A stretch of 64,000 nucleotides of DNA, taken from Eledone cirrhosa. Lineage: Eukaryota. Location: contig OZ024763.1 of the NCBI GenBank assembly GCA_964016885.1, forward strand, positions 9,114,001 through 9,178,000, read 5' to 3'. Both the position numbers and the translations under genes were made by a program. The notes beneath the pieces are model-generated. The model worked only from the letters and a program-made list of their open reading frames with translations, made no database searches and had not been told where the DNA came from. Every line of letters begins with the position of its first letter. Within the stretch, counting starts at the first letter, position 1. Shown piece by piece: positions 40,070 through 64,000 of the stretch.

Positions 40070-40392
40070 ACGGAAAATACAGGATAAAGAGTAAAATGTA
40101 CAGATCGTTTCAATAACTATTTCATCTCCCAGACAGATTAGAGATTTAATCTGTTTCGCCCTGAGAATTGTGTTTGTAACAGATAATCCGTAGGCGTCAT
40201 CAGCGAGAGATAAGATAAAATGTGACAAACACCTAAAACTAAAAGCTACACGAATGAATATTTCACCTCGTGCGAGCAAACGGAAAATACAGGATAGAGT
40301 AAAATGTACACATCGTTTCAATAACTATTTCATCTCCCGGACAGATTAGAGATTTAATCTGTTTCGCCCTGAGAATTGTGTTTGTAACAGAT
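40070..40392 (-). repeat. ~1.5-mer tandem repeat (period ~208-210 bp) containing one full and one half hammerhead; retrozyme/pLTR-like
   Basis: 40070-40183 is repeated almost identically at 40280-40392. Confidence 0.88.
40124..40211 (-). ncRNA. Type I hammerhead ribozyme motif, complete core
   Basis: Minus strand reads ATCTCTCG-CTGATGA-cGCCT..(loop)..GGGC-GAAA-CAGATTA aatctc TAATCTG-TC-TGGGAGAT. Stem I is 8 bp (2 GU), stem III is a perfect 7 bp and the triplet is GUC. Predicted cut between 40132 and 40131. Confidence 0.88.
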
Positions 40393-40739
40393 CAGGAGAC
40401 TGACTATTGTGCGTATATAAATTAACGCACATGGCATAAATACATACATCTAATTATATGTCAGTTAAAACCTTGCCTTTCTTTTCACATTTTACAGACA
40501 GCCACAATGCTGAATTATATGATCTTATGTCAGTGTATGGGAGAGAGAGGGGGGGGGGGGTGAGCAAGCCAGGGTTTAGTCCCACATTTAAGATCATAGG
40601 TAACATTTATCATATAAGAAGCTTCAAGAAAGTCATTGAAATGCCAGTCTCTGAAAATGTGAATATTGTCCTGTGCTACTGTTTCCTTGTGGGAATGATG
40701 GGTTTCGGGTTGGTTTGAAAAGGATTGACAACAACCACA

Positions 40740-42710
40740 CACTCACACCCACTGGTTATCGGTTTCAGGTTAGGCAAGGTGACTAATGTTGTCGTGAAGA
40801 GCAGGTGGCTGATGCAGCAATATGCTGTAGATGCCCAGGGAAAAATACAATGTTGTCACCTCAAAATGGCCGTAACAATCGAACCGTGATGTGAGCTGAA
40901 AAGTATGAGGGTTTCTATGATGCTGAGGGAGATTCAGTAAATGAAGGCCGGAGAATTGTTCTTCCACCTTCAATCTATGGTTCCCAATCGCTTCTACACT
41001 GAGTGCTTTCAGAATTCGATGACTGTGGTTCGACATGGTAAAGTCGTCTTATTTCATCACGGTAACAACTAACTCTAACTGGGATGAAATAAAAAATAAT
41101 TTGCACCCTAGTCAAGAACCTAGAGACCGTCCTGATATTTGTGCAAGATTCTTCAACATCAAGTATGACAGCCTCATGGGTGACATACTGAAAAAGAAAA
41201 TGTCCTAGGAAAAGTTGTTGCTCGTTCTGCTACAATAGAGTGGCAGAAACGAGGCCCCACTCATGCTCATATTCTGCAGATAATGGCTGAAGATAGTAAG
41301 CACAAAACTGCTGATGACATTGATCAGGTAGTGTACTGTGAGATTCCAATTCTACAGAAGATCATCCCCATCTTGCAACATTCATGGCCCATGTGGACAA
41401 GTTAATATGATGTGCTCATGAAAGGAAGGGCTAGGACAACAATAACAATGCTCAAACAGTTATCCCAAGGCAAACCGCATTTGTTGCCAAAAGTTCCTTT
41501 TCAAAGTATAGAAGAAGGGGTAGATAGCATGGTCAATTGTGAGGTTGTCTACAGTGTCAAGGCTGTTAACTAATTAAAGTACATCACAAAAGGATCAGAC
41601 AAAATCACTTTCACTATTAACGATGATCGAGGAAATTGTGTCCATGCTCGAAATGAAATTGAGACCTATATCAATGCATGGTACATCTCAGCCAGTGAAG
41701 CATTCTGGAAAGTTGCCTTGCCATTTACTTGGGGAACAAATGGTCGTGTTTGAGCAAGGGCAGGAAGAAAGTTCTTTCTAGGGGACAGCCAATGACTAAG
41801 TTCACGGAATATTTTCAACTGAATATTAGAGACCCGCTGGAACAAGATATATTGTATATTGATATTCCTAAATATTTCACTTGGACAAACAAAAAATGGC
41901 AAAGAAAAAAAGGGGACATCTGGATGGTGATCAACAATTTATGAGTGAATCTCTTGGACGCATTCTCAGAAGACATCAATCTGAATTATATTACCTCAGA
42001 ATGATCATACATCACAAGGCTGGGTAAACTTCATATAAAGATTAACTTAGTCTGTTGGTCCTCAGCTGCCACAGATCTTCTGCACCATTTAATTGCACTG
42101 CATGCCAAATGACCCTCTGCAGTTCTGGGAGAAATAGAAGAATTGTCTTGCAGAGGATATCATGCATGAACATCATGAGCAATTCATGTCCATGCAAACA
42201 AATAAATCAACTTCTGCCAACATTGAATCCTCAGCAACTGGTTCTTTTTCACAAAGTAATTACCTCTGTAAATGAAAATGAGGGCAGAATTTTCTGCTTG
42301 AATGCAAGTGCAGGTACAGGTCATAAGCATTCTAATGGATTACCTCCAATGTAAAAAAATAATTGCACTTGCCACTGCCATATCTGGAATAGCAGCCACT
42401 TTGCTTCACAAACGAAGAACTCTTCATTCCAAGTGCACGATTCCTCTCAATATGACTGCTGAATCAACTTGCTTCTTCACAAAGAGGGATGACACAGGTA
42501 AACTTATGCAGCAAGCTGACCTGTTAATCATTGATGAGAGAGGTATGGGACATAAGAATATCTTTCAATGCCTGACAGGAGTTTCAAAGATGTTCGAGAT
42601 TGCAAAAAGCCATTTAGTGGTATCTGGTGACTAAAACCAAATTCTTCCAGTTCTACGTCATGGTGATAGACCACAAATAGTTGAAACAACCTTCAAGGGC
42701 AGACATTTAT
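40740..42710 (+). pseudogene. Decayed Helitron Rep-helicase (HUH endonuclease + PIF1 helicase N-terminal half)
   Basis: FITVTTNSNWDEI..RDRPDICARFF, IEWQKRGPTHAHIL (HUH motif), HGPCG, KYITKGSD, YISASEAFW, YIDIPKYFTW, FCLNASAGTG, ATAISGIAATLL..RTLHS, LLIIDE, QILPV. Many stops and frameshifts. Confidence 0.93.
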
Positions 42711-43088
42711 CTACAAACACAATTCTCACGTATGTTGCATTATCACAAAAAAGAAAATATTAAAATATTAAATGAAAGGTGTCTGTTTGCTGGCAACTGT
42801 GTCTACAAAGAAATTCTACAGTCATGTGAAACAGCTATCACTCTTTTAGTTGAAATGCATTTCAGTTTCTTTTTAAATGATAGAAAAGGGACACTACAAA
42901 AACTTATGTCTATATATACTAGCAGAAAAACGCCCAAAGGGCAGTTCTTCAGCTAGCATATATAAATATATGTCGTCTCTCTCGGTGTATGTGTGTGTAT
43001 GTGTGCATATATATATAATGATAAAATGCGAAATACTTTCAGATGTTAAAGTCCTTTATTGATAATGCTGCGATACATATTTGTATGA

Positions 43089-43487: not shown

Positions 43488-44310
43488 AAACTATGAATAA
43501 AATGGCAAGCTGTGTGGTTGCATTTAAGTATAATGAAAAGAAAAGTTATGGGCAAAAGAGGGCAATATCCATCGTCAGTTGTCTGCTAGGAATCATAGGC
43601 ATTTCTTCGCGTTAGAGACAAGATGCCTCAACCTAGGGCGAACAATAACTAAAATAAGTTATTGGAATAAAAAAAGGGGGAGAGAGAAAAATGGATACAC
43701 ACATGAAGGGTGAAGAAACGAAAAGAGGAAAAATCAAGTCAACAACTCATTTTGAACATAAGTTCTGGTGGGTTTAACGAGAAAAAAAAATGCATGTCTT
43801 CACTGTAGCAGTGTGAGTGAGAGAAGAGACTGCTTTAGAAGTGGCAGGTTAGCCGAGAGAAGGTGACTAGCAGAAGAGGGAGAAGGGGGAGAGAGAGCAT
43901 AGCAACAAGGGGATAGAAGAGAGATGGGTCACAACTGAGAAGAAAACTATGTGAATAAAATGGCAAGCTGTGTGGTTGCATTGAAATATAATCAAAATAA
44001 AAGTTACGGGCAAAAGAGGGCAATATCCATCGTCAGTTGTCTGCTAGGAATCATAGGCATTTCTTCGCGTTAGAGACAAGATGCCTCAACCTAGGCCGAA
44101 CAATAACTAAAATAAGTTATTGGGATAAAAAAGAGGGGAGAGAGAGAGAAAAAAATAAACAGACAAAAAGGCTGAAGCAACAAAAAGAAAGGAAAAAAAA
44201 AAAAAAAAAAAACGAGTGAACAATTGATTTCGAACACAAGTTCTGGCGGGTTTGATAAGAAAAAAAGACACATTCACTGTAGAAGTGTGAGCAAGAGAAG
44301 AGACAGTTAC
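43488..44310. repeat. Direct duplication of a ~350 bp unknown segment (offset ~460 bp)
   Basis: aaatggcaagctgtgtggttgcatt..ctaggaatcataggcatttcttcgcgttagagacaagatgcctcaacctagg occurs at ~43500 and ~43958. Confidence 0.85.
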
Positions 44311-44367
44311 GGACGAGGAAGGAAGTGAGCTAGCGGAGGAGTGAGTGAAAATAAGAGAAAGCCAGAA

Positions 44368-44406
<39 letters not shown>

Positions 44407-44461
44407 CATACAAATATATGCATATATACATACATATAAATATATACATATATACATATAT

Positions 44462-45065
44462 ATGGTGGTTGCCAACTCTTTTTCGAGTACGGCCCCTACT
44501 TTATATCCATGTAGGAGAACCCCTACCGATGGGCTGAACGAGTGTGACGTTTTAGTCCAGCCAGTGACTTGAAAACTCTGGTACAAACACTACACTTGTG
44601 ACAATTATTGACAGTGCTGGGCCAATCGTACCATGTGACGACGAGTGCAGAGAGATCTCCAGATATAAAGCAATGCCTGTGCTGTGAAGCTTTTATAGTG
44701 AGCAAAGGCACTGCACAAAGCCAGTCCCACTCTCTTAACCAAGATGATATTTACCAAAAAGCAAAACAAGTCAACATCATTGGATACCATCAGGGTTGCA
44801 GGTGTTATATCAGAGTTTTCCTTCTAGAATTCTGCCTTGACACAGGCTAAGGGGTCATCTCTCCCGGTGATTTTGGATGGCCATTGACTCTTAAGAGCTC
44901 CTTTGCCCTTTGACAGGTTTTGTTTTTAGTCCTGCAGGATGTCCAAAGTCACCCTCCTCACCAAGAAACCTTAGTGGGGTTGCCAGTTTAGTCGCCAACG
45001 ACCCGACCAGGAGACAGGTTGTACTGGGATACATGTTACCAGTAGCACCAACTGGTGACCTGACA
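44462..45065 (-). mobile_element. Internally deleted LINE (RTE-like) retaining a C-terminal C2H2 zinc finger
   Basis: The minus-strand peptide HKCSVCTRVFKSLAGLKRHTRSAH has C2H2 spacing. It is bounded by TA/CA microsatellites. The family assignment is inferred. Confidence 0.5.
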
Positions 45066-45083
45066 TAATATATATGTATGTAC

Positions 45084-45114
<31 letters not shown>

Positions 45115-45619
45115 AGTGAGATGCGCGATGCTGCATGGTAGTGAGACATGGACAGCAACTGCAGAGGGTATGCGATGGCTGGAGAGAAATGAAGCAAGCA
45201 CGCTCCGTTGGATGTGCAATGTCAATGTGCGGGAACGACCAAGCATAAACGAGTTGAGAGAGAAACTGTGTTTAAGAGGGATAAGTTGTGGTGTGCAAGA
45301 GAGGACTGAGATGGTATGGACATGTGATGCGCATGGAGGTTGAGCGCTGGGTAAAGAAGGGAGACGCAGTAGAGGAAGACCACGAAAAACATGGGTGGAG
45401 GTGGTGAGAGCCGACTTCAGATCGCTGAAACTCACCAAGGAGATGACGAAGGACCGTGACAAGTGAAGAGATGCTTTGCTCAAGAGGACCTGTCCCACCC
45501 TTTCAAGCAGGGAAAAGCGGACGTAAAATGATGAACAGACGATGATAATGATGCTCTCTATATATCTATCTCTCTATCAATCTATCCAGATATCTGTGCA
45601 TCAGTCTATCTATTTACCT

Positions 45620-45902
45620 ATAAACACCCTCCTCACTCCGTCTCAGGATCACCGAGACATCACCAACAACCAACCCACGCTGTGGGAAACAGTCCTCCCC
45701 GGGGCACACCCTGGTACTTCACACCATCTGTCTGTCTCGCTGCCTAACTACCGAGAAATCCGGCTTCTGTGCTTGCCTAATTTGTAGGTTATTAGGCAGT
45801 TGGCAGGTTTGCGGAAGTTGGTTTTGCAAATGGTTAAAACACTTGCATCACAAAATTCAAATAGCATCACTCCTTGTTTTATCTTTCTCGTCTTTACCTA
45901 GG
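45620..45902 (-). pseudogene. Inverted, diverged RTE endonuclease fragment in each array unit
   Basis: The reverse complement aligns with 45985-46410 (ctaataacctacaaat.aggcaagcac, tagttaggcagcg.gacag.cagatggtgt, ccccgggga). Confidence 0.85.
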
Positions 45903-45912
45903 CCTGCATAAG

Positions 45913-45963
45913 TTAGTGTTACGGTTAGTGTTACTGTTAGCGTTACGACTAGTTTTAGGGTTA
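45913..45963 (+). repeat. Degenerate telomere-like hexamer tract in each array unit (also 49279, 52645, 56011, 59377, 62743)
   Basis: TTAGTG TTACGG TTAGTG TTACTG TTAGCG TTACGA CTAGTT TTAGGG TTA: strict 6-nt phase, consensus TTA(G/C)NG. Confidence 0.65.
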
Positions 45964-45984
45964 ATTGAGAGCAAGAAACTGCTG

Positions 45985-48388
45985 CTAGGTAAAGACAAGA
46001 AATTCTGCATTTACAAGCAATTTTTACAAACAGCCACAATGACAGGACGGAGACATCGTTATGCTAGCAGGGGATTTCAATGGTCATGTTGGACAGCTCT
46101 ACGATGGTTACACTGAGGTACATGTTGGGCACACTTACGGCTTAAGAAATGAAGCAGTGAAACTTCTTGAATTTTGCAATGCAATTGCACTAACCATCTA
46201 CAACACTAACTTACACAAATCTGCCAACCACCTAATAACCTACAAATCAGGCAAGCACATAAGCCAGATTGACTTCTTGCTAGTTAGGCAGCGGGACAGG
46301 CAGATGGTGTCAAATGCAAAGGCATACCCCGGGGAAGAATGTACCCCACAGCATAGGTTAGTCGTTAGTGATATCTCATTAAGCAAGAGACTGAATGAGA
46401 CATACAGGAAGGTGTGGAAAAAAGAAAGGTCTGGAAGCTAAAAGAGCTCTCACTAAAATACAAATTTAGGAAAGCCCTTCAATATGTGTATGATGAAAAA
46501 GAAGACGATTTAGAGTCGTACAACATAGATGATAACTGGAATTTCTTATGCGATACCTTACTGCAGGTTACTGATGAAACTTGTGGCTGGATCAGAGTTC
46601 CAACCAGACAGAGAGTGACATGGTGGTGGGACAGCACGGTAGATCGGGCCATTGGAGACTAAAGACTAGCATGGAATGCTTGCAAAATTAGTGCGAGTAG
46701 AGAAGAATATACAGCCGCTAAGAGAGAAGCTAGACGTCAGGTGTACTTAGCATGCAAGGAGGCTGCTCGACGACGTGCGCTGTTCCGTACTGCAAGGCAG
46801 TGTGTCAGTGCAAATCGGGATTAAGTCTGTCCGCAATGATGCCGCTGTACTTTGTGTCACGAATGAGTGTTGATGAGTAGAAAAGAGGACAAAACTCTAT
46901 TCCGTCAGGGAAATGGCCATGTTCGATATGCAGAAACGGAACTGGCATAAATTATATAAAACGTACACAAAAGATCGAGTGCGATAGCAGGCACGTAGTG
47001 GGATAGCAGGCAAACTAACAGCATATTTTGATTATAATAAAACAAATAATAATAGTAATAATAATAATAATAATCGTCATTGTTCTTTTCTTCTGTGCCT
47101 TTCTTTGCCTTCTCTGTCATCTGAATAACAAAAATAAAAGAAAAAAAGAATCTTAAACATATGTTGCCTTTACAAAGTGCTGTGATCAAAGTAGCTTTTA
47201 AGCAATTTCCTAACTAACAAACAACATCAACAAAATATATACAAATATCTTTGAATGTCAAGTCCACCAAGAGAAAATAGTCATAATGTACTTACAGATA
47301 CAATGCTAGGGACTCGCATCAATGAGTTTTAGTAGAAAATGACTGACTGACTGTTGAGGGGACAGAGGTGTGTTTTCAAATATTTATCAATTCACAACAA
47401 AGCCTCACAAAGCTACATCATAATGCAAACTCACAACACCCTTCTTATGCAACCTCACCAAGCAACCCCACAACACAACCTCACGTTCACAATTCACAAC
47501 ACTCAACAAGGCATTCGTTATCTAGGGTTTACAGTAAACATAGCGAGGTAAGACACACCCAGTACACTCTGTAAAGTGGTCATTAGGTTAAGATTAAACT
47601 GAAATCATACCTCCATTGTCGTTGGCGTATATTTTCTCTAAAACTTAATTTCATTGCTTTCATTTCTCTTCTTTTTCTTCTATTCCATCTAAATATGAAA
47701 AAAAAATTATACAGGTCATTTCGTCTTATCAAGAGGTCCATTTAAAATTGAGATTAACGAATATAGGGTCCAAGAGGCGATTAAGGAATTGAAAAATGGT
47801 GAGGCTGCTGGACCATCGGAGATAGTTGCTGAGATGCTGAAGGCCTCAGGGGACGTAGGCACTAAACTGGTTGCACACATCATCAATCAGGCTATATATG
47901 GCAGTGTCATACCCAAAGACTAGTGCAAAAGTAAAGGGGACGCTCTTGAGAGGAGAAATTATAGGGATATAAAACTGATGGATCAGGTTATGAAAGTGGC
48001 AGAAAGGATATTAGCACAACTAATTAGAGAAAGGGTCAAACTAGATGAGATGCAGTTTGGTTTTGTGCCTGGGAATAGTACAACAGATGCCCTCTTCTTG
48101 ATGAGACAATTACAAGAGAGGTTCTTAGAGAAAAATAAGCCACTATACTTAGCCTTTGTTGACCTAGAGAAGGCCTTTGATAGGGTACGCCGATCTGTCA
48201 TCTTATTATTTAACCTATAAATGGGGCCCCAACAGGTACTACTACACCAGGCCAGAGCAGACCTGGGAGTTATGACAACTAAGGGGGTAACTCCATGTTC
48301 CCCACAGTTCCTCCTGAACTTGAGCCTTGCCACTGGATGTAGTTTAATGTCATACCCAGGACAAATATATACATACATATATATACAT

Positions 48389-48435
<47 letters not shown>

Positions 48436-48920
48436 TACAAATATATATATGCGTACGAAAGTGTGGTTACATGATGCCTATGCGAGATGTGCGACCCTGC
48501 ATGGTAGTGAAACATGGACAGCAACTGCAGAGGGTATGCGATGGCTGGAGAGAAATGAAGCAAGCACGCTCCGTTGGATGTGCAATGTCAATGTGCGGGA
48601 ACGACCAAGCATAAACGAGTTGAGAGAGAAACTGTGTTTAAGAGGGATAAGTTGTGGTGTGCAAGAGAGGACTGAGATGGTATGGACATGTGATGCGCAT
48701 GGAGGTTGAGCGCTGGGTAAAGAAGGGAGACGCAGTAGAGGAAGACCACGAAAAACATGGGTGGAGGTGGTGAGAGCCGACTTCAGATCGCTGAAACTCA
48801 CCAAGGAGATGACGAAGGACCGTGACAAGTGAAGAGATGCTTTGCTCAAGAGGACCTGTCCCACCCTTTCAAGCAGGGAAAAGCGGACGTAAAATGATGA
48901 ACAGACGATGATAATGATGC
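45985..48920 (+). pseudogene. Decayed RTE LINE forming most of each array unit (EN, linker, RT, 3' TGA-repeat tail), interrupted by insertions
   Basis: MLAGDFNGHVG..ITYKSG..QIDFLLVR..PQHRLVV (APE), RVTWWWD, QFGFVPG.STTDA..LAFVDLEKAFDRV (RT), LHGSETW..LRWMC, then the tail atgatgaacagacgatgataatgatg. Confidence 0.92.
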
Positions 48921-51754
48921 TCTCTATATATCTATCTCTCTATCAATCTATCCAGATATCTGTGCATCAGTCTATCTATTTACCTATAAACACCCTCCTC
49001 ACTCCGTCTCAGGATCACCGAGACATCACCAACAACCAACCCACGCTGTGGGAAACAGTCCTCCCCGGGGCACACCCTGGTACTTCACACCATCTGTCTG
49101 TCTCGCTGCCTAACTACCGAGAAATCCGGCTTCTGTGCTTGCCTAATTTGTAGGTTATTAGGCAGTTGGCAGGTTTGCGGAAGTTGGTTTTGCAAATGGT
49201 TAAAACACTTGCATCACAAAATTCAAATAGCATCACTCCTTGTTTTATCTTTCTCGTCTTTACCTAGGCCTGCATAAGTTAGTGTTACGGTTAGTGTTAC
49301 TGTTAGCGTTACGACTAGTTTTAGGGTTAATTGAGAGCAAGAAACTGCTGCTAGGTAAAGACAAGAAATTCTGCATTTACAAGCAATTTTTACAAACAGC
49401 CACAATGACAGGACGGAGACATCGTTATGCTAGCAGGGGATTTCAATGGTCATGTTGGACAGCTCTACGATGGTTACACTGAGGTACATGTTGGGCACAC
49501 TTACGGCTTAAGAAATGAAGCAGTGAAACTTCTTGAATTTTGCAATGCAATTGCACTAACCATCTACAACACTAACTTACACAAATCTGCCAACCACCTA
49601 ATAACCTACAAATCAGGCAAGCACATAAGCCAGATTGACTTCTTGCTAGTTAGGCAGCGGGACAGGCAGATGGTGTCAAATGCAAAGGCATACCCCGGGG
49701 AAGAATGTACCCCACAGCATAGGTTAGTCGTTAGTGATATCTCATTAAGCAAGAGACTGAATGAGACATACAGGAAGGTGTGGAAAAAAGAAAGGTCTGG
49801 AAGCTAAAAGAGCTCTCACTAAAATACAAATTTAGGAAAGCCCTTCAATATGTGTATGATGAAAAAGAAGACGATTTAGAGTCGTACAACATAGATGATA
49901 ACTGGAATTTCTTATGCGATACCTTACTGCAGGTTACTGATGAAACTTGTGGCTGGATCAGAGTTCCAACCAGACAGAGAGTGACATGGTGGTGGGACAG
50001 CACGGTAGATCGGGCCATTGGAGACTAAAGACTAGCATGGAATGCTTGCAAAATTAGTGCGAGTAGAGAAGAATATACAGCCGCTAAGAGAGAAGCTAGA
50101 CGTCAGGTGTACTTAGCATGCAAGGAGGCTGCTCGACGACGTGCGCTGTTCCGTACTGCAAGGCAGTGTGTCAGTGCAAATCGGGATTAAGTCTGTCCGC
50201 AATGATGCCGCTGTACTTTGTGTCACGAATGAGTGTTGATGAGTAGAAAAGAGGACAAAACTCTATTCCGTCAGGGAAATGGCCATGTTCGATATGCAGA
50301 AACGGAACTGGCATAAATTATATAAAACGTACACAAAAGATCGAGTGCGATAGCAGGCACGTAGTGGGATAGCAGGCAAACTAACAGCATATTTTGATTA
50401 TAATAAAACAAATAATAATAGTAATAATAATAATAATAATCGTCATTGTTCTTTTCTTCTGTGCCTTTCTTTGCCTTCTCTGTCATCTGAATAACAAAAA
50501 TAAAAGAAAAAAAGAATCTTAAACATATGTTGCCTTTACAAAGTGCTGTGATCAAAGTAGCTTTTAAGCAATTTCCTAACTAACAAACAACATCAACAAA
50601 ATATATACAAATATCTTTGAATGTCAAGTCCACCAAGAGAAAATAGTCATAATGTACTTACAGATACAATGCTAGGGACTCGCATCAATGAGTTTTAGTA
50701 GAAAATGACTGACTGACTGTTGAGGGGACAGAGGTGTGTTTTCAAATATTTATCAATTCACAACAAAGCCTCACAAAGCTACATCATAATGCAAACTCAC
50801 AACACCCTTCTTATGCAACCTCACCAAGCAACCCCACAACACAACCTCACGTTCACAATTCACAACACTCAACAAGGCATTCGTTATCTAGGGTTTACAG
50901 TAAACATAGCGAGGTAAGACACACCCAGTACACTCTGTAAAGTGGTCATTAGGTTAAGATTAAACTGAAATCATACCTCCATTGTCGTTGGCGTATATTT
51001 TCTCTAAAACTTAATTTCATTGCTTTCATTTCTCTTCTTTTTCTTCTATTCCATCTAAATATGAAAAAAAAATTATACAGGTCATTTCGTCTTATCAAGA
51101 GGTCCATTTAAAATTGAGATTAACGAATATAGGGTCCAAGAGGCGATTAAGGAATTGAAAAATGGTGAGGCTGCTGGACCATCGGAGATAGTTGCTGAGA
51201 TGCTGAAGGCCTCAGGGGACGTAGGCACTAAACTGGTTGCACACATCATCAATCAGGCTATATATGGCAGTGTCATACCCAAAGACTAGTGCAAAAGTAA
51301 AGGGGACGCTCTTGAGAGGAGAAATTATAGGGATATAAAACTGATGGATCAGGTTATGAAAGTGGCAGAAAGGATATTAGCACAACTAATTAGAGAAAGG
51401 GTCAAACTAGATGAGATGCAGTTTGGTTTTGTGCCTGGGAATAGTACAACAGATGCCCTCTTCTTGATGAGACAATTACAAGAGAGGTTCTTAGAGAAAA
51501 ATAAGCCACTATACTTAGCCTTTGTTGACCTAGAGAAGGCCTTTGATAGGGTACGCCGATCTGTCATCTTATTATTTAACCTATAAATGGGGCCCCAACA
51601 GGTACTACTACACCAGGCCAGAGCAGACCTGGGAGTTATGACAACTAAGGGGGTAACTCCATGTTCCCCACAGTTCCTCCTGAACTTGAGCCTTGCCACT
51701 GGATGTAGTTTAATGTCATACCCAGGACAAATATATACATACATATATATACAT

Positions 51755-51801
<47 letters not shown>

Positions 51802-54800
51802 TACAAATATATATATGCGTACGAAAGTGTGGTTACATGATGCCTATGCGAGATGTGCGACCCTGCATGGTAGTGAAACATGGACAGCAACTGCAGAGGG
51901 TATGCGATGGCTGGAGAGAAATGAAGCAAGCACGCTCCGTTGGATGTGCAATGTCAATGTGCGGGAACGACCAAGCATAAACGAGTTGAGAGAGAAACTG
52001 TGTTTAAGAGGGATAAGTTGTGGTGTGCAAGAGAGGACTGAGATGGTATGGACATGTGATGCGCATGGAGGTTGAGCGCTGGGTAAAGAAGGGAGACGCA
52101 GTAGAGGAAGACCACGAAAAACATGGGTGGAGGTGGTGAGAGCCGACTTCAGATCGCTGAAACTCACCAAGGAGATGACGAAGGACCGTGACAAGTGAAG
52201 AGATGCTTTGCTCAAGAGGACCTGTCCCACCCTTTCAAGCAGGGAAAAGCGGACGTAAAATGATGAACAGACGATGATAATGATGCTCTCTATATATCTA
52301 TCTCTCTATCAATCTATCCAGATATCTGTGCATCAGTCTATCTATTTACCTATAAACACCCTCCTCACTCCGTCTCAGGATCACCGAGACATCACCAACA
52401 ACCAACCCACGCTGTGGGAAACAGTCCTCCCCGGGGCACACCCTGGTACTTCACACCATCTGTCTGTCTCGCTGCCTAACTACCGAGAAATCCGGCTTCT
52501 GTGCTTGCCTAATTTGTAGGTTATTAGGCAGTTGGCAGGTTTGCGGAAGTTGGTTTTGCAAATGGTTAAAACACTTGCATCACAAAATTCAAATAGCATC
52601 ACTCCTTGTTTTATCTTTCTCGTCTTTACCTAGGCCTGCATAAGTTAGTGTTACGGTTAGTGTTACTGTTAGCGTTACGACTAGTTTTAGGGTTAATTGA
52701 GAGCAAGAAACTGCTGCTAGGTAAAGACAAGAAATTCTGCATTTACAAGCAATTTTTACAAACAGCCACAATGACAGGACGGAGACATCGTTATGCTAGC
52801 AGGGGATTTCAATGGTCATGTTGGACAGCTCTACGATGGTTACACTGAGGTACATGTTGGGCACACTTACGGCTTAAGAAATGAAGCAGTGAAACTTCTT
52901 GAATTTTGCAATGCAATTGCACTAACCATCTACAACACTAACTTACACAAATCTGCCAACCACCTAATAACCTACAAATCAGGCAAGCACATAAGCCAGA
53001 TTGACTTCTTGCTAGTTAGGCAGCGGGACAGGCAGATGGTGTCAAATGCAAAGGCATACCCCGGGGAAGAATGTACCCCACAGCATAGGTTAGTCGTTAG
53101 TGATATCTCATTAAGCAAGAGACTGAATGAGACATACAGGAAGGTGTGGAAAAAAGAAAGGTCTGGAAGCTAAAAGAGCTCTCACTAAAATACAAATTTA
53201 GGAAAGCCCTTCAATATGTGTATGATGAAAAAGAAGACGATTTAGAGTCGTACAACATAGATGATAACTGGAATTTCTTATGCGATACCTTACTGCAGGT
53301 TACTGATGAAACTTGTGGCTGGATCAGAGTTCCAACCAGACAGAGAGTGACATGGTGGTGGGACAGCACGGTAGATCGGGCCATTGGAGACTAAAGACTA
53401 GCATGGAATGCTTGCAAAATTAGTGCGAGTAGAGAAGAATATACAGCCGCTAAGAGAGAAGCTAGACGTCAGGTGTACTTAGCATGCAAGGAGGCTGCTC
53501 GACGACGTGCGCTGTTCCGTACTGCAAGGCAGTGTGTCAGTGCAAATCGGGATTAAGTCTGTCCGCAATGATGCCGCTGTACTTTGTGTCACGAATGAGT
53601 GTTGATGAGTAGAAAAGAGGACAAAACTCTATTCCGTCAGGGAAATGGCCATGTTCGATATGCAGAAACGGAACTGGCATAAATTATATAAAACGTACAC
53701 AAAAGATCGAGTGCGATAGCAGGCACGTAGTGGGATAGCAGGCAAACTAACAGCATATTTTGATTATAATAAAACAAATAATAATAGTAATAATAATAAT
53801 AATAATCGTCATTGTTCTTTTCTTCTGTGCCTTTCTTTGCCTTCTCTGTCATCTGAATAACAAAAATAAAAGAAAAAAAGAATCTTAAACATATGTTGCC
53901 TTTACAAAGTGCTGTGATCAAAGTAGCTTTTAAGCAATTTCCTAACTAACAAACAACATCAACAAAATATATACAAATATCTTTGAATGTCAAGTCCACC
54001 AAGAGAAAATAGTCATAATGTACTTACAGATACAATGCTAGGGACTCGCATCAATGAGTTTTAGTAGAAAATGACTGACTGACTGTTGAGGGGACAGAGG
54101 TGTGTTTTCAAATATTTATCAATTCACAACAAAGCCTCACAAAGCTACATCATAATGCAAACTCACAACACCCTTCTTATGCAACCTCACCAAGCAACCC
54201 CACAACACAACCTCACGTTCACAATTCACAACACTCAACAAGGCATTCGTTATCTAGGGTTTACAGTAAACATAGCGAGGTAAGACACACCCAGTACACT
54301 CTGTAAAGTGGTCATTAGGTTAAGATTAAACTGAAATCATACCTCCATTGTCGTTGGCGTATATTTTCTCTAAAACTTAATTTCATTGCTTTCATTTCTC
54401 TTCTTTTTCTTCTATTCCATCTAAATATGAAAAAAAAATTATACAGGTCATTTCGTCTTATCAAGAGGTCCATTTAAAATTGAGATTAACGAATATAGGG
54501 TCCAAGAGGCGATTAAGGAATTGAAAAATGGTGAGGCTGCTGGACCATCGGAGATAGTTGCTGAGATGCTGAAGGCCTCAGGGGACGTAGGCACTAAACT
54601 GGTTGCACACATCATCAATCAGGCTATATATGGCAGTGTCATACCCAAAGACTAGTGCAAAAGTAAAGGGGACGCTCTTGAGAGGAGAAATTATAGGGAT
54701 ATAAAACTGATGGATCAGGTTATGAAAGTGGCAGAAAGGATATTAGCACAACTAATTAGAGAAAGGGTCAAACTAGATGAGATGCAGTTTGGTTTTGTGC

Positions 54801-55120
54801 CTGGGAATAGTACAACAGATGCCCTCTTCTTGATGAGACAATTACAAGAGAGGTTCTTAGAGAAAAATAAGCCACTATACTTAGCCTTTGTTGACCTAGA
54901 GAAGGCCTTTGATAGGGTACGCCGATCTGTCATCTTATTATTTAACCTATAAATGGGGCCCCAACAGGTACTACTACACCAGGCCAGAGCAGACCTGGGA
55001 GTTATGACAACTAAGGGGGTAACTCCATGTTCCCCACAGTTCCTCCTGAACTTGAGCCTTGCCACTGGATGTAGTTTAATGTCATACCCAGGACAAATAT
55101 ATACATACATATATATACAT

Positions 55121-55167
<47 letters not shown>

Positions 55168-58100
55168 TACAAATATATATATGCGTACGAAAGTGTGGTT
55201 ACATGATGCCTATGCGAGATGTGCGACCCTGCATGGTAGTGAAACATGGACAGCAACTGCAGAGGGTATGCGATGGCTGGAGAGAAATGAAGCAAGCACG
55301 CTCCGTTGGATGTGCAATGTCAATGTGCGGGAACGACCAAGCATAAACGAGTTGAGAGAGAAACTGTGTTTAAGAGGGATAAGTTGTGGTGTGCAAGAGA
55401 GGACTGAGATGGTATGGACATGTGATGCGCATGGAGGTTGAGCGCTGGGTAAAGAAGGGAGACGCAGTAGAGGAAGACCACGAAAAACATGGGTGGAGGT
55501 GGTGAGAGCCGACTTCAGATCGCTGAAACTCACCAAGGAGATGACGAAGGACCGTGACAAGTGAAGAGATGCTTTGCTCAAGAGGACCTGTCCCACCCTT
55601 TCAAGCAGGGAAAAGCGGACGTAAAATGATGAACAGACGATGATAATGATGCTCTCTATATATCTATCTCTCTATCAATCTATCCAGATATCTGTGCATC
55701 AGTCTATCTATTTACCTATAAACACCCTCCTCACTCCGTCTCAGGATCACCGAGACATCACCAACAACCAACCCACGCTGTGGGAAACAGTCCTCCCCGG
55801 GGCACACCCTGGTACTTCACACCATCTGTCTGTCTCGCTGCCTAACTACCGAGAAATCCGGCTTCTGTGCTTGCCTAATTTGTAGGTTATTAGGCAGTTG
55901 GCAGGTTTGCGGAAGTTGGTTTTGCAAATGGTTAAAACACTTGCATCACAAAATTCAAATAGCATCACTCCTTGTTTTATCTTTCTCGTCTTTACCTAGG
56001 CCTGCATAAGTTAGTGTTACGGTTAGTGTTACTGTTAGCGTTACGACTAGTTTTAGGGTTAATTGAGAGCAAGAAACTGCTGCTAGGTAAAGACAAGAAA
56101 TTCTGCATTTACAAGCAATTTTTACAAACAGCCACAATGACAGGACGGAGACATCGTTATGCTAGCAGGGGATTTCAATGGTCATGTTGGACAGCTCTAC
56201 GATGGTTACACTGAGGTACATGTTGGGCACACTTACGGCTTAAGAAATGAAGCAGTGAAACTTCTTGAATTTTGCAATGCAATTGCACTAACCATCTACA
56301 ACACTAACTTACACAAATCTGCCAACCACCTAATAACCTACAAATCAGGCAAGCACATAAGCCAGATTGACTTCTTGCTAGTTAGGCAGCGGGACAGGCA
56401 GATGGTGTCAAATGCAAAGGCATACCCCGGGGAAGAATGTACCCCACAGCATAGGTTAGTCGTTAGTGATATCTCATTAAGCAAGAGACTGAATGAGACA
56501 TACAGGAAGGTGTGGAAAAAAGAAAGGTCTGGAAGCTAAAAGAGCTCTCACTAAAATACAAATTTAGGAAAGCCCTTCAATATGTGTATGATGAAAAAGA
56601 AGACGATTTAGAGTCGTACAACATAGATGATAACTGGAATTTCTTATGCGATACCTTACTGCAGGTTACTGATGAAACTTGTGGCTGGATCAGAGTTCCA
56701 ACCAGACAGAGAGTGACATGGTGGTGGGACAGCACGGTAGATCGGGCCATTGGAGACTAAAGACTAGCATGGAATGCTTGCAAAATTAGTGCGAGTAGAG
56801 AAGAATATACAGCCGCTAAGAGAGAAGCTAGACGTCAGGTGTACTTAGCATGCAAGGAGGCTGCTCGACGACGTGCGCTGTTCCGTACTGCAAGGCAGTG
56901 TGTCAGTGCAAATCGGGATTAAGTCTGTCCGCAATGATGCCGCTGTACTTTGTGTCACGAATGAGTGTTGATGAGTAGAAAAGAGGACAAAACTCTATTC
57001 CGTCAGGGAAATGGCCATGTTCGATATGCAGAAACGGAACTGGCATAAATTATATAAAACGTACACAAAAGATCGAGTGCGATAGCAGGCACGTAGTGGG
57101 ATAGCAGGCAAACTAACAGCATATTTTGATTATAATAAAACAAATAATAATAGTAATAATAATAATAATAATCGTCATTGTTCTTTTCTTCTGTGCCTTT
57201 CTTTGCCTTCTCTGTCATCTGAATAACAAAAATAAAAGAAAAAAAGAATCTTAAACATATGTTGCCTTTACAAAGTGCTGTGATCAAAGTAGCTTTTAAG
57301 CAATTTCCTAACTAACAAACAACATCAACAAAATATATACAAATATCTTTGAATGTCAAGTCCACCAAGAGAAAATAGTCATAATGTACTTACAGATACA
57401 ATGCTAGGGACTCGCATCAATGAGTTTTAGTAGAAAATGACTGACTGACTGTTGAGGGGACAGAGGTGTGTTTTCAAATATTTATCAATTCACAACAAAG
57501 CCTCACAAAGCTACATCATAATGCAAACTCACAACACCCTTCTTATGCAACCTCACCAAGCAACCCCACAACACAACCTCACGTTCACAATTCACAACAC
57601 TCAACAAGGCATTCGTTATCTAGGGTTTACAGTAAACATAGCGAGGTAAGACACACCCAGTACACTCTGTAAAGTGGTCATTAGGTTAAGATTAAACTGA
57701 AATCATACCTCCATTGTCGTTGGCGTATATTTTCTCTAAAACTTAATTTCATTGCTTTCATTTCTCTTCTTTTTCTTCTATTCCATCTAAATATGAAAAA
57801 AAAATTATACAGGTCATTTCGTCTTATCAAGAGGTCCATTTAAAATTGAGATTAACGAATATAGGGTCCAAGAGGCGATTAAGGAATTGAAAAATGGTGA
57901 GGCTGCTGGACCATCGGAGATAGTTGCTGAGATGCTGAAGGCCTCAGGGGACGTAGGCACTAAACTGGTTGCACACATCATCAATCAGGCTATATATGGC
58001 AGTGTCATACCCAAAGACTAGTGCAAAAGTAAAGGGGACGCTCTTGAGAGGAGAAATTATAGGGATATAAAACTGATGGATCAGGTTATGAAAGTGGCAG

Positions 58101-58486
58101 AAAGGATATTAGCACAACTAATTAGAGAAAGGGTCAAACTAGATGAGATGCAGTTTGGTTTTGTGCCTGGGAATAGTACAACAGATGCCCTCTTCTTGAT
58201 GAGACAATTACAAGAGAGGTTCTTAGAGAAAAATAAGCCACTATACTTAGCCTTTGTTGACCTAGAGAAGGCCTTTGATAGGGTACGCCGATCTGTCATC
58301 TTATTATTTAACCTATAAATGGGGCCCCAACAGGTACTACTACACCAGGCCAGAGCAGACCTGGGAGTTATGACAACTAAGGGGGTAACTCCATGTTCCC
58401 CACAGTTCCTCCTGAACTTGAGCCTTGCCACTGGATGTAGTTTAATGTCATACCCAGGACAAATATATACATACATATATATACAT

Positions 58487-58533
<47 letters not shown>

Positions 58534-61500
58534 TACAAATATATATATGCGTACGAAAGTGTGGTTACATGATGCCTATGCGAGATGTGCGACCCTGCAT
58601 GGTAGTGAAACATGGACAGCAACTGCAGAGGGTATGCGATGGCTGGAGAGAAATGAAGCAAGCACGCTCCGTTGGATGTGCAATGTCAATGTGCGGGAAC
58701 GACCAAGCATAAACGAGTTGAGAGAGAAACTGTGTTTAAGAGGGATAAGTTGTGGTGTGCAAGAGAGGACTGAGATGGTATGGACATGTGATGCGCATGG
58801 AGGTTGAGCGCTGGGTAAAGAAGGGAGACGCAGTAGAGGAAGACCACGAAAAACATGGGTGGAGGTGGTGAGAGCCGACTTCAGATCGCTGAAACTCACC
58901 AAGGAGATGACGAAGGACCGTGACAAGTGAAGAGATGCTTTGCTCAAGAGGACCTGTCCCACCCTTTCAAGCAGGGAAAAGCGGACGTAAAATGATGAAC
59001 AGACGATGATAATGATGCTCTCTATATATCTATCTCTCTATCAATCTATCCAGATATCTGTGCATCAGTCTATCTATTTACCTATAAACACCCTCCTCAC
59101 TCCGTCTCAGGATCACCGAGACATCACCAACAACCAACCCACGCTGTGGGAAACAGTCCTCCCCGGGGCACACCCTGGTACTTCACACCATCTGTCTGTC
59201 TCGCTGCCTAACTACCGAGAAATCCGGCTTCTGTGCTTGCCTAATTTGTAGGTTATTAGGCAGTTGGCAGGTTTGCGGAAGTTGGTTTTGCAAATGGTTA
59301 AAACACTTGCATCACAAAATTCAAATAGCATCACTCCTTGTTTTATCTTTCTCGTCTTTACCTAGGCCTGCATAAGTTAGTGTTACGGTTAGTGTTACTG
59401 TTAGCGTTACGACTAGTTTTAGGGTTAATTGAGAGCAAGAAACTGCTGCTAGGTAAAGACAAGAAATTCTGCATTTACAAGCAATTTTTACAAACAGCCA
59501 CAATGACAGGACGGAGACATCGTTATGCTAGCAGGGGATTTCAATGGTCATGTTGGACAGCTCTACGATGGTTACACTGAGGTACATGTTGGGCACACTT
59601 ACGGCTTAAGAAATGAAGCAGTGAAACTTCTTGAATTTTGCAATGCAATTGCACTAACCATCTACAACACTAACTTACACAAATCTGCCAACCACCTAAT
59701 AACCTACAAATCAGGCAAGCACATAAGCCAGATTGACTTCTTGCTAGTTAGGCAGCGGGACAGGCAGATGGTGTCAAATGCAAAGGCATACCCCGGGGAA
59801 GAATGTACCCCACAGCATAGGTTAGTCGTTAGTGATATCTCATTAAGCAAGAGACTGAATGAGACATACAGGAAGGTGTGGAAAAAAGAAAGGTCTGGAA
59901 GCTAAAAGAGCTCTCACTAAAATACAAATTTAGGAAAGCCCTTCAATATGTGTATGATGAAAAAGAAGACGATTTAGAGTCGTACAACATAGATGATAAC
60001 TGGAATTTCTTATGCGATACCTTACTGCAGGTTACTGATGAAACTTGTGGCTGGATCAGAGTTCCAACCAGACAGAGAGTGACATGGTGGTGGGACAGCA
60101 CGGTAGATCGGGCCATTGGAGACTAAAGACTAGCATGGAATGCTTGCAAAATTAGTGCGAGTAGAGAAGAATATACAGCCGCTAAGAGAGAAGCTAGACG
60201 TCAGGTGTACTTAGCATGCAAGGAGGCTGCTCGACGACGTGCGCTGTTCCGTACTGCAAGGCAGTGTGTCAGTGCAAATCGGGATTAAGTCTGTCCGCAA
60301 TGATGCCGCTGTACTTTGTGTCACGAATGAGTGTTGATGAGTAGAAAAGAGGACAAAACTCTATTCCGTCAGGGAAATGGCCATGTTCGATATGCAGAAA
60401 CGGAACTGGCATAAATTATATAAAACGTACACAAAAGATCGAGTGCGATAGCAGGCACGTAGTGGGATAGCAGGCAAACTAACAGCATATTTTGATTATA
60501 ATAAAACAAATAATAATAGTAATAATAATAATAATAATCGTCATTGTTCTTTTCTTCTGTGCCTTTCTTTGCCTTCTCTGTCATCTGAATAACAAAAATA
60601 AAAGAAAAAAAGAATCTTAAACATATGTTGCCTTTACAAAGTGCTGTGATCAAAGTAGCTTTTAAGCAATTTCCTAACTAACAAACAACATCAACAAAAT
60701 ATATACAAATATCTTTGAATGTCAAGTCCACCAAGAGAAAATAGTCATAATGTACTTACAGATACAATGCTAGGGACTCGCATCAATGAGTTTTAGTAGA
60801 AAATGACTGACTGACTGTTGAGGGGACAGAGGTGTGTTTTCAAATATTTATCAATTCACAACAAAGCCTCACAAAGCTACATCATAATGCAAACTCACAA
60901 CACCCTTCTTATGCAACCTCACCAAGCAACCCCACAACACAACCTCACGTTCACAATTCACAACACTCAACAAGGCATTCGTTATCTAGGGTTTACAGTA
61001 AACATAGCGAGGTAAGACACACCCAGTACACTCTGTAAAGTGGTCATTAGGTTAAGATTAAACTGAAATCATACCTCCATTGTCGTTGGCGTATATTTTC
61101 TCTAAAACTTAATTTCATTGCTTTCATTTCTCTTCTTTTTCTTCTATTCCATCTAAATATGAAAAAAAAATTATACAGGTCATTTCGTCTTATCAAGAGG
61201 TCCATTTAAAATTGAGATTAACGAATATAGGGTCCAAGAGGCGATTAAGGAATTGAAAAATGGTGAGGCTGCTGGACCATCGGAGATAGTTGCTGAGATG
61301 CTGAAGGCCTCAGGGGACGTAGGCACTAAACTGGTTGCACACATCATCAATCAGGCTATATATGGCAGTGTCATACCCAAAGACTAGTGCAAAAGTAAAG
61401 GGGACGCTCTTGAGAGGAGAAATTATAGGGATATAAAACTGATGGATCAGGTTATGAAAGTGGCAGAAAGGATATTAGCACAACTAATTAGAGAAAGGGT

Positions 61501-61852
61501 CAAACTAGATGAGATGCAGTTTGGTTTTGTGCCTGGGAATAGTACAACAGATGCCCTCTTCTTGATGAGACAATTACAAGAGAGGTTCTTAGAGAAAAAT
61601 AAGCCACTATACTTAGCCTTTGTTGACCTAGAGAAGGCCTTTGATAGGGTACGCCGATCTGTCATCTTATTATTTAACCTATAAATGGGGCCCCAACAGG
61701 TACTACTACACCAGGCCAGAGCAGACCTGGGAGTTATGACAACTAAGGGGGTAACTCCATGTTCCCCACAGTTCCTCCTGAACTTGAGCCTTGCCACTGG
61801 ATGTAGTTTAATGTCATACCCAGGACAAATATATACATACATATATATACAT

Positions 61853-61899
<47 letters not shown>

Positions 61900-64000
61900 T
61901 ACAAATATATATATGCGTACGAAAGTGTGGTTACATGATGCCTATGCGAGATGTGCGACCCTGCATGGTAGTGAAACATGGACAGCAACTGCAGAGGGTA
62001 TGCGATGGCTGGAGAGAAATGAAGCAAGCACGCTCCGTTGGATGTGCAATGTCAATGTGCGGGAACGACCAAGCATAAACGAGTTGAGAGAGAAACTGTG
62101 TTTAAGAGGGATAAGTTGTGGTGTGCAAGAGAGGACTGAGATGGTATGGACATGTGATGCGCATGGAGGTTGAGCGCTGGGTAAAGAAGGGAGACGCAGT
62201 AGAGGAAGACCACGAAAAACATGGGTGGAGGTGGTGAGAGCCGACTTCAGATCGCTGAAACTCACCAAGGAGATGACGAAGGACCGTGACAAGTGAAGAG
62301 ATGCTTTGCTCAAGAGGACCTGTCCCACCCTTTCAAGCAGGGAAAAGCGGACGTAAAATGATGAACAGACGATGATAATGATGCTCTCTATATATCTATC
62401 TCTCTATCAATCTATCCAGATATCTGTGCATCAGTCTATCTATTTACCTATAAACACCCTCCTCACTCCGTCTCAGGATCACCGAGACATCACCAACAAC
62501 CAACCCACGCTGTGGGAAACAGTCCTCCCCGGGGCACACCCTGGTACTTCACACCATCTGTCTGTCTCGCTGCCTAACTACCGAGAAATCCGGCTTCTGT
62601 GCTTGCCTAATTTGTAGGTTATTAGGCAGTTGGCAGGTTTGCGGAAGTTGGTTTTGCAAATGGTTAAAACACTTGCATCACAAAATTCAAATAGCATCAC
62701 TCCTTGTTTTATCTTTCTCGTCTTTACCTAGGCCTGCATAAGTTAGTGTTACGGTTAGTGTTACTGTTAGCGTTACGACTAGTTTTAGGGTTAATTGAGA
62801 GCAAGAAACTGCTGCTAGGTAAAGACAAGAAATTCTGCATTTACAAGCAATTTTTACAAACAGCCACAATGACAGGACGGAGACATCGTTATGCTAGCAG
62901 GGGATTTCAATGGTCATGTTGGACAGCTCTACGATGGTTACACTGAGGTACATGTTGGGCACACTTACGGCTTAAGAAATGAAGCAGTGAAACTTCTTGA
63001 ATTTTGCAATGCAATTGCACTAACCATCTACAACACTAACTTACACAAATCTGCCAACCACCTAATAACCTACAAATCAGGCAAGCACATAAGCCAGATT
63101 GACTTCTTGCTAGTTAGGCAGCGGGACAGGCAGATGGTGTCAAATGCAAAGGCATACCCCGGGGAAGAATGTACCCCACAGCATAGGTTAGTCGTTAGTG
63201 ATATCTCATTAAGCAAGAGACTGAATGAGACATACAGGAAGGTGTGGAAAAAAGAAAGGTCTGGAAGCTAAAAGAGCTCTCACTAAAATACAAATTTAGG
63301 AAAGCCCTTCAATATGTGTATGATGAAAAAGAAGACGATTTAGAGTCGTACAACATAGATGATAACTGGAATTTCTTATGCGATACCTTACTGCAGGTTA
63401 CTGATGAAACTTGTGGCTGGATCAGAGTTCCAACCAGACAGAGAGTGACATGGTGGTGGGACAGCACGGTAGATCGGGCCATTGGAGACTAAAGACTAGC
63501 ATGGAATGCTTGCAAAATTAGTGCGAGTAGAGAAGAATATACAGCCGCTAAGAGAGAAGCTAGACGTCAGGTGTACTTAGCATGCAAGGAGGCTGCTCGA
63601 CGACGTGCGCTGTTCCGTACTGCAAGGCAGTGTGTCAGTGCAAATCGGGATTAAGTCTGTCCGCAATGATGCCGCTGTACTTTGTGTCACGAATGAGTGT
63701 TGATGAGTAGAAAAGAGGACAAAACTCTATTCCGTCAGGGAAATGGCCATGTTCGATATGCAGAAACGGAACTGGCATAAATTATATAAAACGTACACAA
63801 AAGATCGAGTGCGATAGCAGGCACGTAGTGGGATAGCAGGCAAACTAACAGCATATTTTGATTATAATAAAACAAATAATAATAGTAATAATAATAATAA
63901 TAATCGTCATTGTTCTTTTCTTCTGTGCCTTTCTTTGCCTTCTCTGTCATCTGAATAACAAAAATAAAAGAAAAAAAGAATCTTAAACATATGTTGCCTT

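Follow-up and report, generated by a model that had tools for sequence, protein, structure and literature searches.

At positions 40070 to 40392 of a 64,000-nt stretch of Eledone cirrhosa DNA (the window hereafter; contig OZ024763.1), the minus strand carries a hammerhead ribozyme motif and, 208 nt upstream of its predicted cut, a second candidate cleavage site. The initial annotation took this arrangement for a retrozyme-like unit giving rise to a 208-nt circular RNA. The locus raises the question of whether 208 nt is the unit of a mobile ribozyme family and, if not, how the spacing arose. Comparison with the 3.0-Gb source assembly indicated that the window copy is a deleted, 5′-truncated 1.5-mer of a family with units of about 450–480 nt, that the family probably spreads via Penelope-like enzymes acting in trans, and that this copy is probably a passenger of a duplicated block.

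Hammerhead motif of the window

A complete type I hammerhead motif was identified on the minus strand at 40124–40211 by sequence, fold and descriptor, in agreement with the initial annotation. The CUGAnGA and GAAA boxes, the nUH triplet and three stems are all present, and stem I is open. The 5′ strand of stem I (40211–40204) is followed by CUGAUGA (40203–40197), the 5′ strand of stem II (40195–40192), a long loop, and the 3′ strand of stem II with GAAA (40161–40154). GUC ends at 40132 and the 3′ strand of stem I occupies 40131–40124, which places the predicted cut at 40132/40131. Stem I comprises 8 bp, stem II 4 bp, and stem III eight pairs when A15.1–U16.1 is counted. The 88-nt motif folded into three stems with z = −3.1, and none of 200 shuffled sequences folded equally well. 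Our hammerhead descriptor gave a single match in positions 10001–64000 of the window and no match in 100 shuffles. Rfam did not detect the motif: nothing in the window reached the gathering score, and none of the hammerhead families was matched in 39500–41000 at E values of up to 10.

The earlier description of the motif was incomplete in one respect, as it missed an extra base between A9 and G10.1 (40196, minus strand). This base is C in the window and U, A or 2–3 nt in most relatives. C10 was predicted to pair with G12 at P = 0.96 in the isolated motif, at P = 0.89–0.96 in the calculations that included the full transcript, and at P = 0.85–0.96 when nascent RNA was counted as well, and such pairing is predicted to weaken the hammerhead. 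The harm of C10 is extrapolated from the (+) hammerhead of Chrysanthemum chlorotic mottle viroid, which likewise carries a single additional nucleotide at this position; A10 is reported as its natural state, with C10 strongly harmful and U10 three to four times faster (PMC3705267).

Predicted second cleavage site and deletion

Sequence inspection confirmed the two GUC sites 208 nt apart and the duplicated 3′ half. The latter belongs to a 5′-truncated upstream unit on the minus strand (40275–40392, starting at 40392/40393; 62 bits to the family model), which contains the stem II loop, GAAA, stem III, GUC and about 65 nt beyond. Its GUC ends at 40340, the predicted cut falls at 40340/40339, and the predicted cut-to-cut fragment spans 40132–40339 (minus strand). 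Because the upstream unit lacks a CUGAUGA of its own, its site could be cut only via a permuted (type II) fold. The window copy is therefore not a pair of consecutive complete hammerhead units, consisting of one motif and a 3′ half.

The 208-nt spacing most likely goes back to a single deletion event. The downstream partial unit (40041–40274, minus strand) ends about 60 nt short of the usual 3′ end of the family, at an (AT)n run (40029–40040) of the kind that the family usually targets, and it meets the upstream unit at a junction (40274/40275, minus strand) where the family unit has lost about 256–259 bp. Two undeleted 1.5-mers, L066 and L077, are laid out like the window copy: each starts within the stem II loop, runs through one full unit and reaches the 3′ end, and the spacing is 461 nt in L066 and 471 nt in L077. 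The 256–259 bp that the window copy lacks relative to these loci include both 3′-end signals and the greater part of the conserved fold. The predicted fragment is a deleted form of a monomer of about 465 nt, and the proposal of a 208-nt monomer is not supported as the family unit. The accompanying proposal that the copy is a 5′-truncated 1.5-mer from a family of non-coding, tandem hammerhead repeats of the non-LTR retrozyme kind is borne out by hundreds of relatives that include true multimers. The junction itself was seen in three sequencing runs of unrecorded type from one study, possibly from the assembly's own sample, and was spanned by an identical contig in run X3.

Duplicated subtelomeric block

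The 323-bp feature had 25 full-length matches in the genome, at 95–100% identity. The whole 3.3-kb flank was common to 21 of these places, including that of the window, and the other four shared at least one flank. Most block copies were 95–100% identical across 3.3 kb, with the element and its flanks equally similar. When one mismatch was allowed, the deletion junction was found at exactly 25 places, all of them copies of one block. Therefore, the 208-nt layout arose once and multiplied together with its neighbourhood, never having moved by itself. When 20 block copies were sampled 28–38 kb downstream, more than 300 telomere repeats turned up in 11 of them, 10 with the expected orientation; in the window, the array occupies positions 1–9997, 30 kb from the element. 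The window copy is likely a passenger of this duplicated, largely subtelomeric block.

The telomere array of the window (contig near 9.11–9.12 Mb) is internal to its scaffold, as are those of several other array-bearing block copies, which lie near N gaps and represent either scaffolding joins or interstitial telomeres. The block as a whole is a pile of decayed mobile elements. Decayed Helitron pieces lie at 40700–42750 (plus strand) and 35530–36135 (minus strand), with matches to Helitron_like_N, PIF1 and Pif1_2B_dom, and a tandem array with a period of 3366 bp extends over about 44300–64000, one of its units having a weak endonuclease/RT match. A tRNA search of the window gave no hit. Another hammerhead-like motif at 37423–37504 (minus strand) scored 22 bits against the family model, but its minimum-energy fold is not a hammerhead; the repeat that bears it is dispersed and was also found in L027, L181, L223 and L118.

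C10 is present in 14 of the 25 block copies. A single origin of C10 was not supported by the block tree, from which L024 was left out owing to its different 5′ flank: the carriers did not form one clade, as L013 and L015 stood apart from the other 12. Since the site is also a CpG, C10 may be the inserted state and not a later change. By motif, both GUC sites are intact in 24 of the 25 copies; L020 has GCC at the upstream site, and L015, although counted among the 24, has an altered core.

Probable retrozyme family in the genome

The core pattern had 761 exact matches in the genome and a 19-mer of the ribozyme had 417, while the reversed control gave none in either case. The flanks of the matches were unrelated, indicating a dispersed family. 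For detailed analysis, 115 dispersed loci were collected, comprising 34 best BLAST hits, 23 loci from among the first exact matches on contig C1, and 58 loci from among the first 100 core matches on C1, some of which were chosen for paired hits. Block copies and loci that overlapped one another were removed from the set, as were two loci of nearly the same sequence (L185 and L186). The sample is not random because it is made up of best and first matches, some picked as pairs, and the exact-pattern and BLAST searches may have missed diverged relatives.

Same-strand tandems were observed in 17 of the 115 loci, a count that supersedes stricter earlier tandem-motif counts, by which some loci were missed. 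The spacing was 424–487 nt in 14 of them and 556–664 nt in three, and no dispersed locus of the 115 showed a 208-nt spacing. Together with the 761 core matches, these tandems provide the genomic copies and multimers that the initial annotation had called for. In L173 (3370–6020), approximately 5.6 units of 472 nt are accompanied by an inverted copy, with (TA)n on both sides; the longest ATG-initiated ORF of this array encodes 55 aa and its G + C content is 0.35. Three hammerheads in tandem were found in L179. Most family copies are monomers or shorter.

Subfamilies are 70–75% alike over the whole unit, and several of them close on themselves as ORF-less units of 450–480 nt. Nine whole units drawn from the subfamilies had a branched fold in common; of its 108 pairs, 8 showed double changes, in an alignment in which one row was offset by 18 nt. 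Among relatives, 93–94% of the cells of the hammerhead stems were paired, compared to 23–48% when the alignment was slid. Loop III and N7 varied and the stems held in rows that had been chosen for an intact core, and 22 of 58 aligned hammerheads failed a simple core test. The stem covariation proposed as a check was not above that of shuffled controls, of which 85 and 218 of 500 reached the score in the two comparisons; the hammerhead structure therefore rests on motif identity together with one-sided changes. A pairing between loops I and II (five pairs, 90% of cells paired) showed no double change and hence is not claimed.

One to three extra bases precede G10.1 in all 115 dispersed cores: U in 43, A in 36, AAU in 15, AA and UA in eight each, C and AAA in two each, and AU in one. 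More than one extra base is present in 34 cores. In contrast to the viroid hammerhead, U, A and inserts of 2–3 nt are natural subfamily states here, with C found mostly among the block copies. The subfamilies with two or three extra bases (L144, L146, L153, L163 and others) also have a changed N7.

A SINE-like element, presumably tRNA-derived given its resemblance, lies antisense right after the terminal hairpin of the unit in at least 15 of the 115 loci (L070, L072, L076, L144, L158, L162, L169, L224, L252, L259 and others). Truncations and duplication lengths differ among these insertions, and the position is likely a hot spot of independent insertions.

Tandem type I units that are non-coding, low in G + C and a few hundred base pairs long are the features of a retrozyme family. 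At the sequence level, the repeats make up a new non-LTR retrozyme family, and circular RNAs are predicted from it. Our literature search yielded no paper on the family or on cephalopod retrozymes; supplementary species lists may include it. A metagenome scan produced 53 pattern matches, none similar to the unit and with a median G + C content of 0.56, which were taken as chance.

Structure of the insertions

An inverted piece was present in 66 of the 115 loci, and the copies are 5′-truncated and end at (TA)n. Element edges touched a microsatellite in 176 of 292 cases, compared to 1001 of 5750 control windows. The microsatellite end fell at one of two fixed points in 77 of the 115 loci, either behind an AC-rich hairpin that lies approximately 150 nt beyond the cut (55 ends) or approximately 75 nt farther on, behind an additional tail (49 ends). 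Where the tail end was followed in 47 motifs, it continued into the next unit in 31, into (TA)n in 13 and into other sequence in three. The strand after the cut was joined to its own stem III strand in 81 of 83 cases, and no copy among the dispersed loci examined ended at the cut site. Therefore, the template of reverse transcription spanned the cut, as either a circle or an uncut multimer would.

Truncation, tandem and inverted pieces, a tail and a microsatellite target are hallmarks of Penelope-type insertion, and the family displays them all. Penelope-like elements are described as being truncated, as occurring in partial tandems and with inverted 5′ copies, and as having tails and a preference for microsatellites (PMC8557442). 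For Poseidon, the purified protein is reported to nick AT-rich DNA and to begin reverse transcription at two internal positions of an AC-rich stem-loop 3′ of the hammerhead, which define the tail; insertion in vitro did not need ribozyme cleavage (PMC11167929). The two 3′ ends of the family match these two internal starts (PMC11167929).

Family size, unit length, the absence of ORFs, and the tandem and inverted structure can be read from the sequence by itself, as can the two (TA)n 3′ ends, the deletion and the 25 block copies. As a mechanism, we propose that tandem transcripts would self-cleave at GUC and that a Penelope-like GIY-YIG/RT protein would nick (TA)n. Reverse transcription would begin at an internal point of the RNA, about 150 or 225 nt beyond the cut site, and would copy back across the cut on a circle or an uncut multimer. 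In the window copy, about 257 bp would have been lost after insertion, or else skipped by the reverse transcriptase; this copy would then have gained a neighbouring Penelope 3′ end and been multiplied through exchange between chromosome ends.

Relation to Penelope-like elements

The initial annotation had noted that no Penelope ORF adjoins the element. The absence of an ORF was upheld, as a Penelope protein search of the 64-kb window gave no match, but 12 bp downstream, on the same strand, is the 3′ end of a separate Penelope-like family that does have ORFs (39652–40028, 376 bp, minus strand). This segment is 83–92% identical to the 3′ UTRs behind GIY-YIG ORFs in L120, L124, L125, L128, L133 and L135, and it contains a minimal hammerhead at about 39851–39812 whose stem III is short and palindromic. 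One block copy (L023) is an empty site without 39652–40028; the Penelope-like 3′ end was therefore inserted later, into the (TA)n run.

The genome contains 10,597 GIY-YIG candidates and several RT/GIY-YIG families, and one of these might be the parent of the hammerhead units. The family would then be the pseudo-LTR (3′ end) of an as yet unfound autonomous Penelope-like element, and its arrays would be partial tandems or local duplications. We consider this unlikely, although the insertion hallmarks are all of Penelope type (PMC8557442), and an extra base before G10.1 is described as a conserved trait of Penelope hammerheads (PMC4209133). Variants in the L173 array also alternate with a period of two, which suggests local duplication of a dimer and thus points to partial local duplication of the array. 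The unit was found at none of 50 GIY-YIG loci searched by BLAST and at none of 61 Penelope loci searched with the covariance model, a comparison that covers 61 loci against the 10,597 candidates; a 34-nt AT-rich match at GIY-YIG loci was dismissed.

Against a pseudo-LTR origin stands the fact that several subfamilies close on themselves as ORF-less units, and that the tail end runs into a next unit more than twice as often as into (TA)n. Stem III of the family is 8 bp long, whereas animal Penelope hammerheads have a short palindromic one (PMC4209133). Homologs that are always tied to a Penelope RT/GIY-YIG ORF would have marked an ordinary pseudo-LTR; at the tandem loci examined, no RT/GIY-YIG ORF lies between units.

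Joins of the unit to a Penelope element without a spacer were found in two of the 115 loci and involve two different families. In L148 (about 700–1420), the unit abuts, head to head, a Penelope-like element whose linker has a zinc finger of the Neptune type, and in L189 (1560–2910), it sits within a 3′ UTR that belongs to a Poseidon-like element; the labels were assigned from linker motifs (PMC8557442) and not from a tree. The L189 join was unique among the 40 best matches of its Penelope stretch and therefore is not the structure of that family. Both joins could be co-insertions or the result of later deletions. The other Penelope-adjacent cases were rejected, most of them being due to a SINE in the flank of library entry L140, and the rest being separated by a microsatellite, tail to tail (L159 and L183), or located in flank beyond the element end (L161 and L178).

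Possible activity of the 208-nt form

Spread of the family in trans, with the window copy as a deleted offshoot, is the preferred reading. The initial proposal of a small circular RNA from the window copy itself was also considered. In its explicit form, a read-through transcript would be cut at 40340/40339 by a type II fold and then at 40132/40131 by the type I hammerhead, and the 208-nt piece would circularise. Natural type II hammerheads have reportedly been described. In nascent RNA ending at 40190–40170, three stems were predicted around the upstream site at P 0.88–0.99, so the two-cut idea stays possible on folding grounds; the single core strand required for this fold lies 130 nt downstream of the upstream half. 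The 208-mer, folded as a linear or a circular molecule, was predicted to hold its ends in a hammerhead, and the block copies, nearly all with both GUC sites intact by motif, offer 25 near-identical templates in the genome.

Several observations weigh against this scheme. Apart from the C10–G12 pairing, the active fold had a weight of only 0.025 at the downstream site and 0.001 at the upstream site in the full transcript. In block copies with U10, the downstream active fold reached only 0.02–0.11, and the calculation is therefore no proof of a large effect of C10. The deletion took away both 3′-end signals and the greater part of the conserved fold, an independent insertion carrying the junction was never seen, and no promoter is known for such a mini-retrozyme. 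The earlier description of the ends as ligation-competent is true of the predicted fold, but the animal retrozymes tested self-ligate poorly, at 1–3%, compared to 30–80% with RtcB ligase (PMC7229834). The two-cut scheme is unlikely, slightly more so than a pseudo-LTR origin, and the window copy is probably not a working circular RNA.

Highly implausible is the idea that the block copy is kept as a host ribozyme cutting telomere-directed subtelomeric transcripts: the element does lie on the telomere-pointing strand of the block at 25 places, with a telomere array so oriented 28–38 kb downstream in 10 of the 20 sampled copies, but the equal similarity of element and flanks reveals no special conservation, 30 kb separate the element from the telomere, the rest of the block consists of decayed mobile elements, and one copy lacks the upstream GUC and another has an altered core.

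Comparison with known retrozymes and Penelope-like elements

The family resembles the non-LTR retrozymes of coral, mussel and axolotl in being non-coding and low in G + C (35% here), with one type I hammerhead per unit (PMC7229834), in ranging from monomers to multimers, and in co-occurring with Penelope-like elements (PMC7229834; 10.64898/2026.07.22.740005). Its units of 450–480 nt are longer than the 170–400-nt RNAs reported for animal retrozymes (PMC7229834); a vertebrate survey preprint gives consensus lengths of 51–972 bp (10.64898/2026.07.22.740005). It further differs from the described animal retrozymes in the one to three extra bases between A9 and G10.1, the 8-bp stem III and the size of its largest array, about 5.6 units (PMC7229834). 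Animal retrozymes yield circular RNA (PMC7229834), whereas the present family is known from DNA. With one full hammerhead, the window copy falls short of the two hammerheads on which the preprint bases its activity criterion; one of nine dimers tested there was cleaved (10.64898/2026.07.22.740005).

With Penelope pseudo-LTRs, the family shares 5′ truncation, partial tandems, inverted 5′ pieces, an optional tail, microsatellite targets and an extra base before G10.1 (PMC4209133; PMC8557442; PMC11167929). As in Poseidon of the anole, the 3′ end of the inserted DNA lies downstream of the ribozyme cut (PMC11167929). In contrast to the pseudo-LTRs, the unit has no RT/GIY-YIG ORF within it or attached to it, its tail measures about 75 nt compared to 30–40 in the described pseudo-LTRs, and its stem III is long where theirs is short and palindromic (PMC4209133).

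Implications

The non-LTR retrozymes of animals and a connection between them and Penelope have already been published, and the vertebrate preprint derives retrozymes from Penelope ends on the basis of co-occurrence and phylogeny (10.64898/2026.07.22.740005). The present case adds a well-resolved family, comprising young as well as old subfamilies, in which the insertions directly bear Penelope signatures, namely two 3′ ends with a tail, inverted ends, TA targets and two possible co-insertions. It is, in addition, a source of natural hammerheads in which the core is enlarged by one to three bases. Since these signatures are present within the family, it is ready for an in vitro test of trans-mobilisation and of the circularity of the template. 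More tentatively, and with a chance well short of even, more than one Penelope clade may copy a circular RNA of 450–480 nt from two internal starts and sometimes insert it together with RNA of their own, as in L148 and L189; cores with two or three extra bases may be active, and the 208-nt form at 25 chromosome-end sites may represent a minimal circle produced by a switch from the type II to the type I fold. If true, this would provide direct genomic evidence of a partnership that has so far been argued from co-occurrence and phylogeny.
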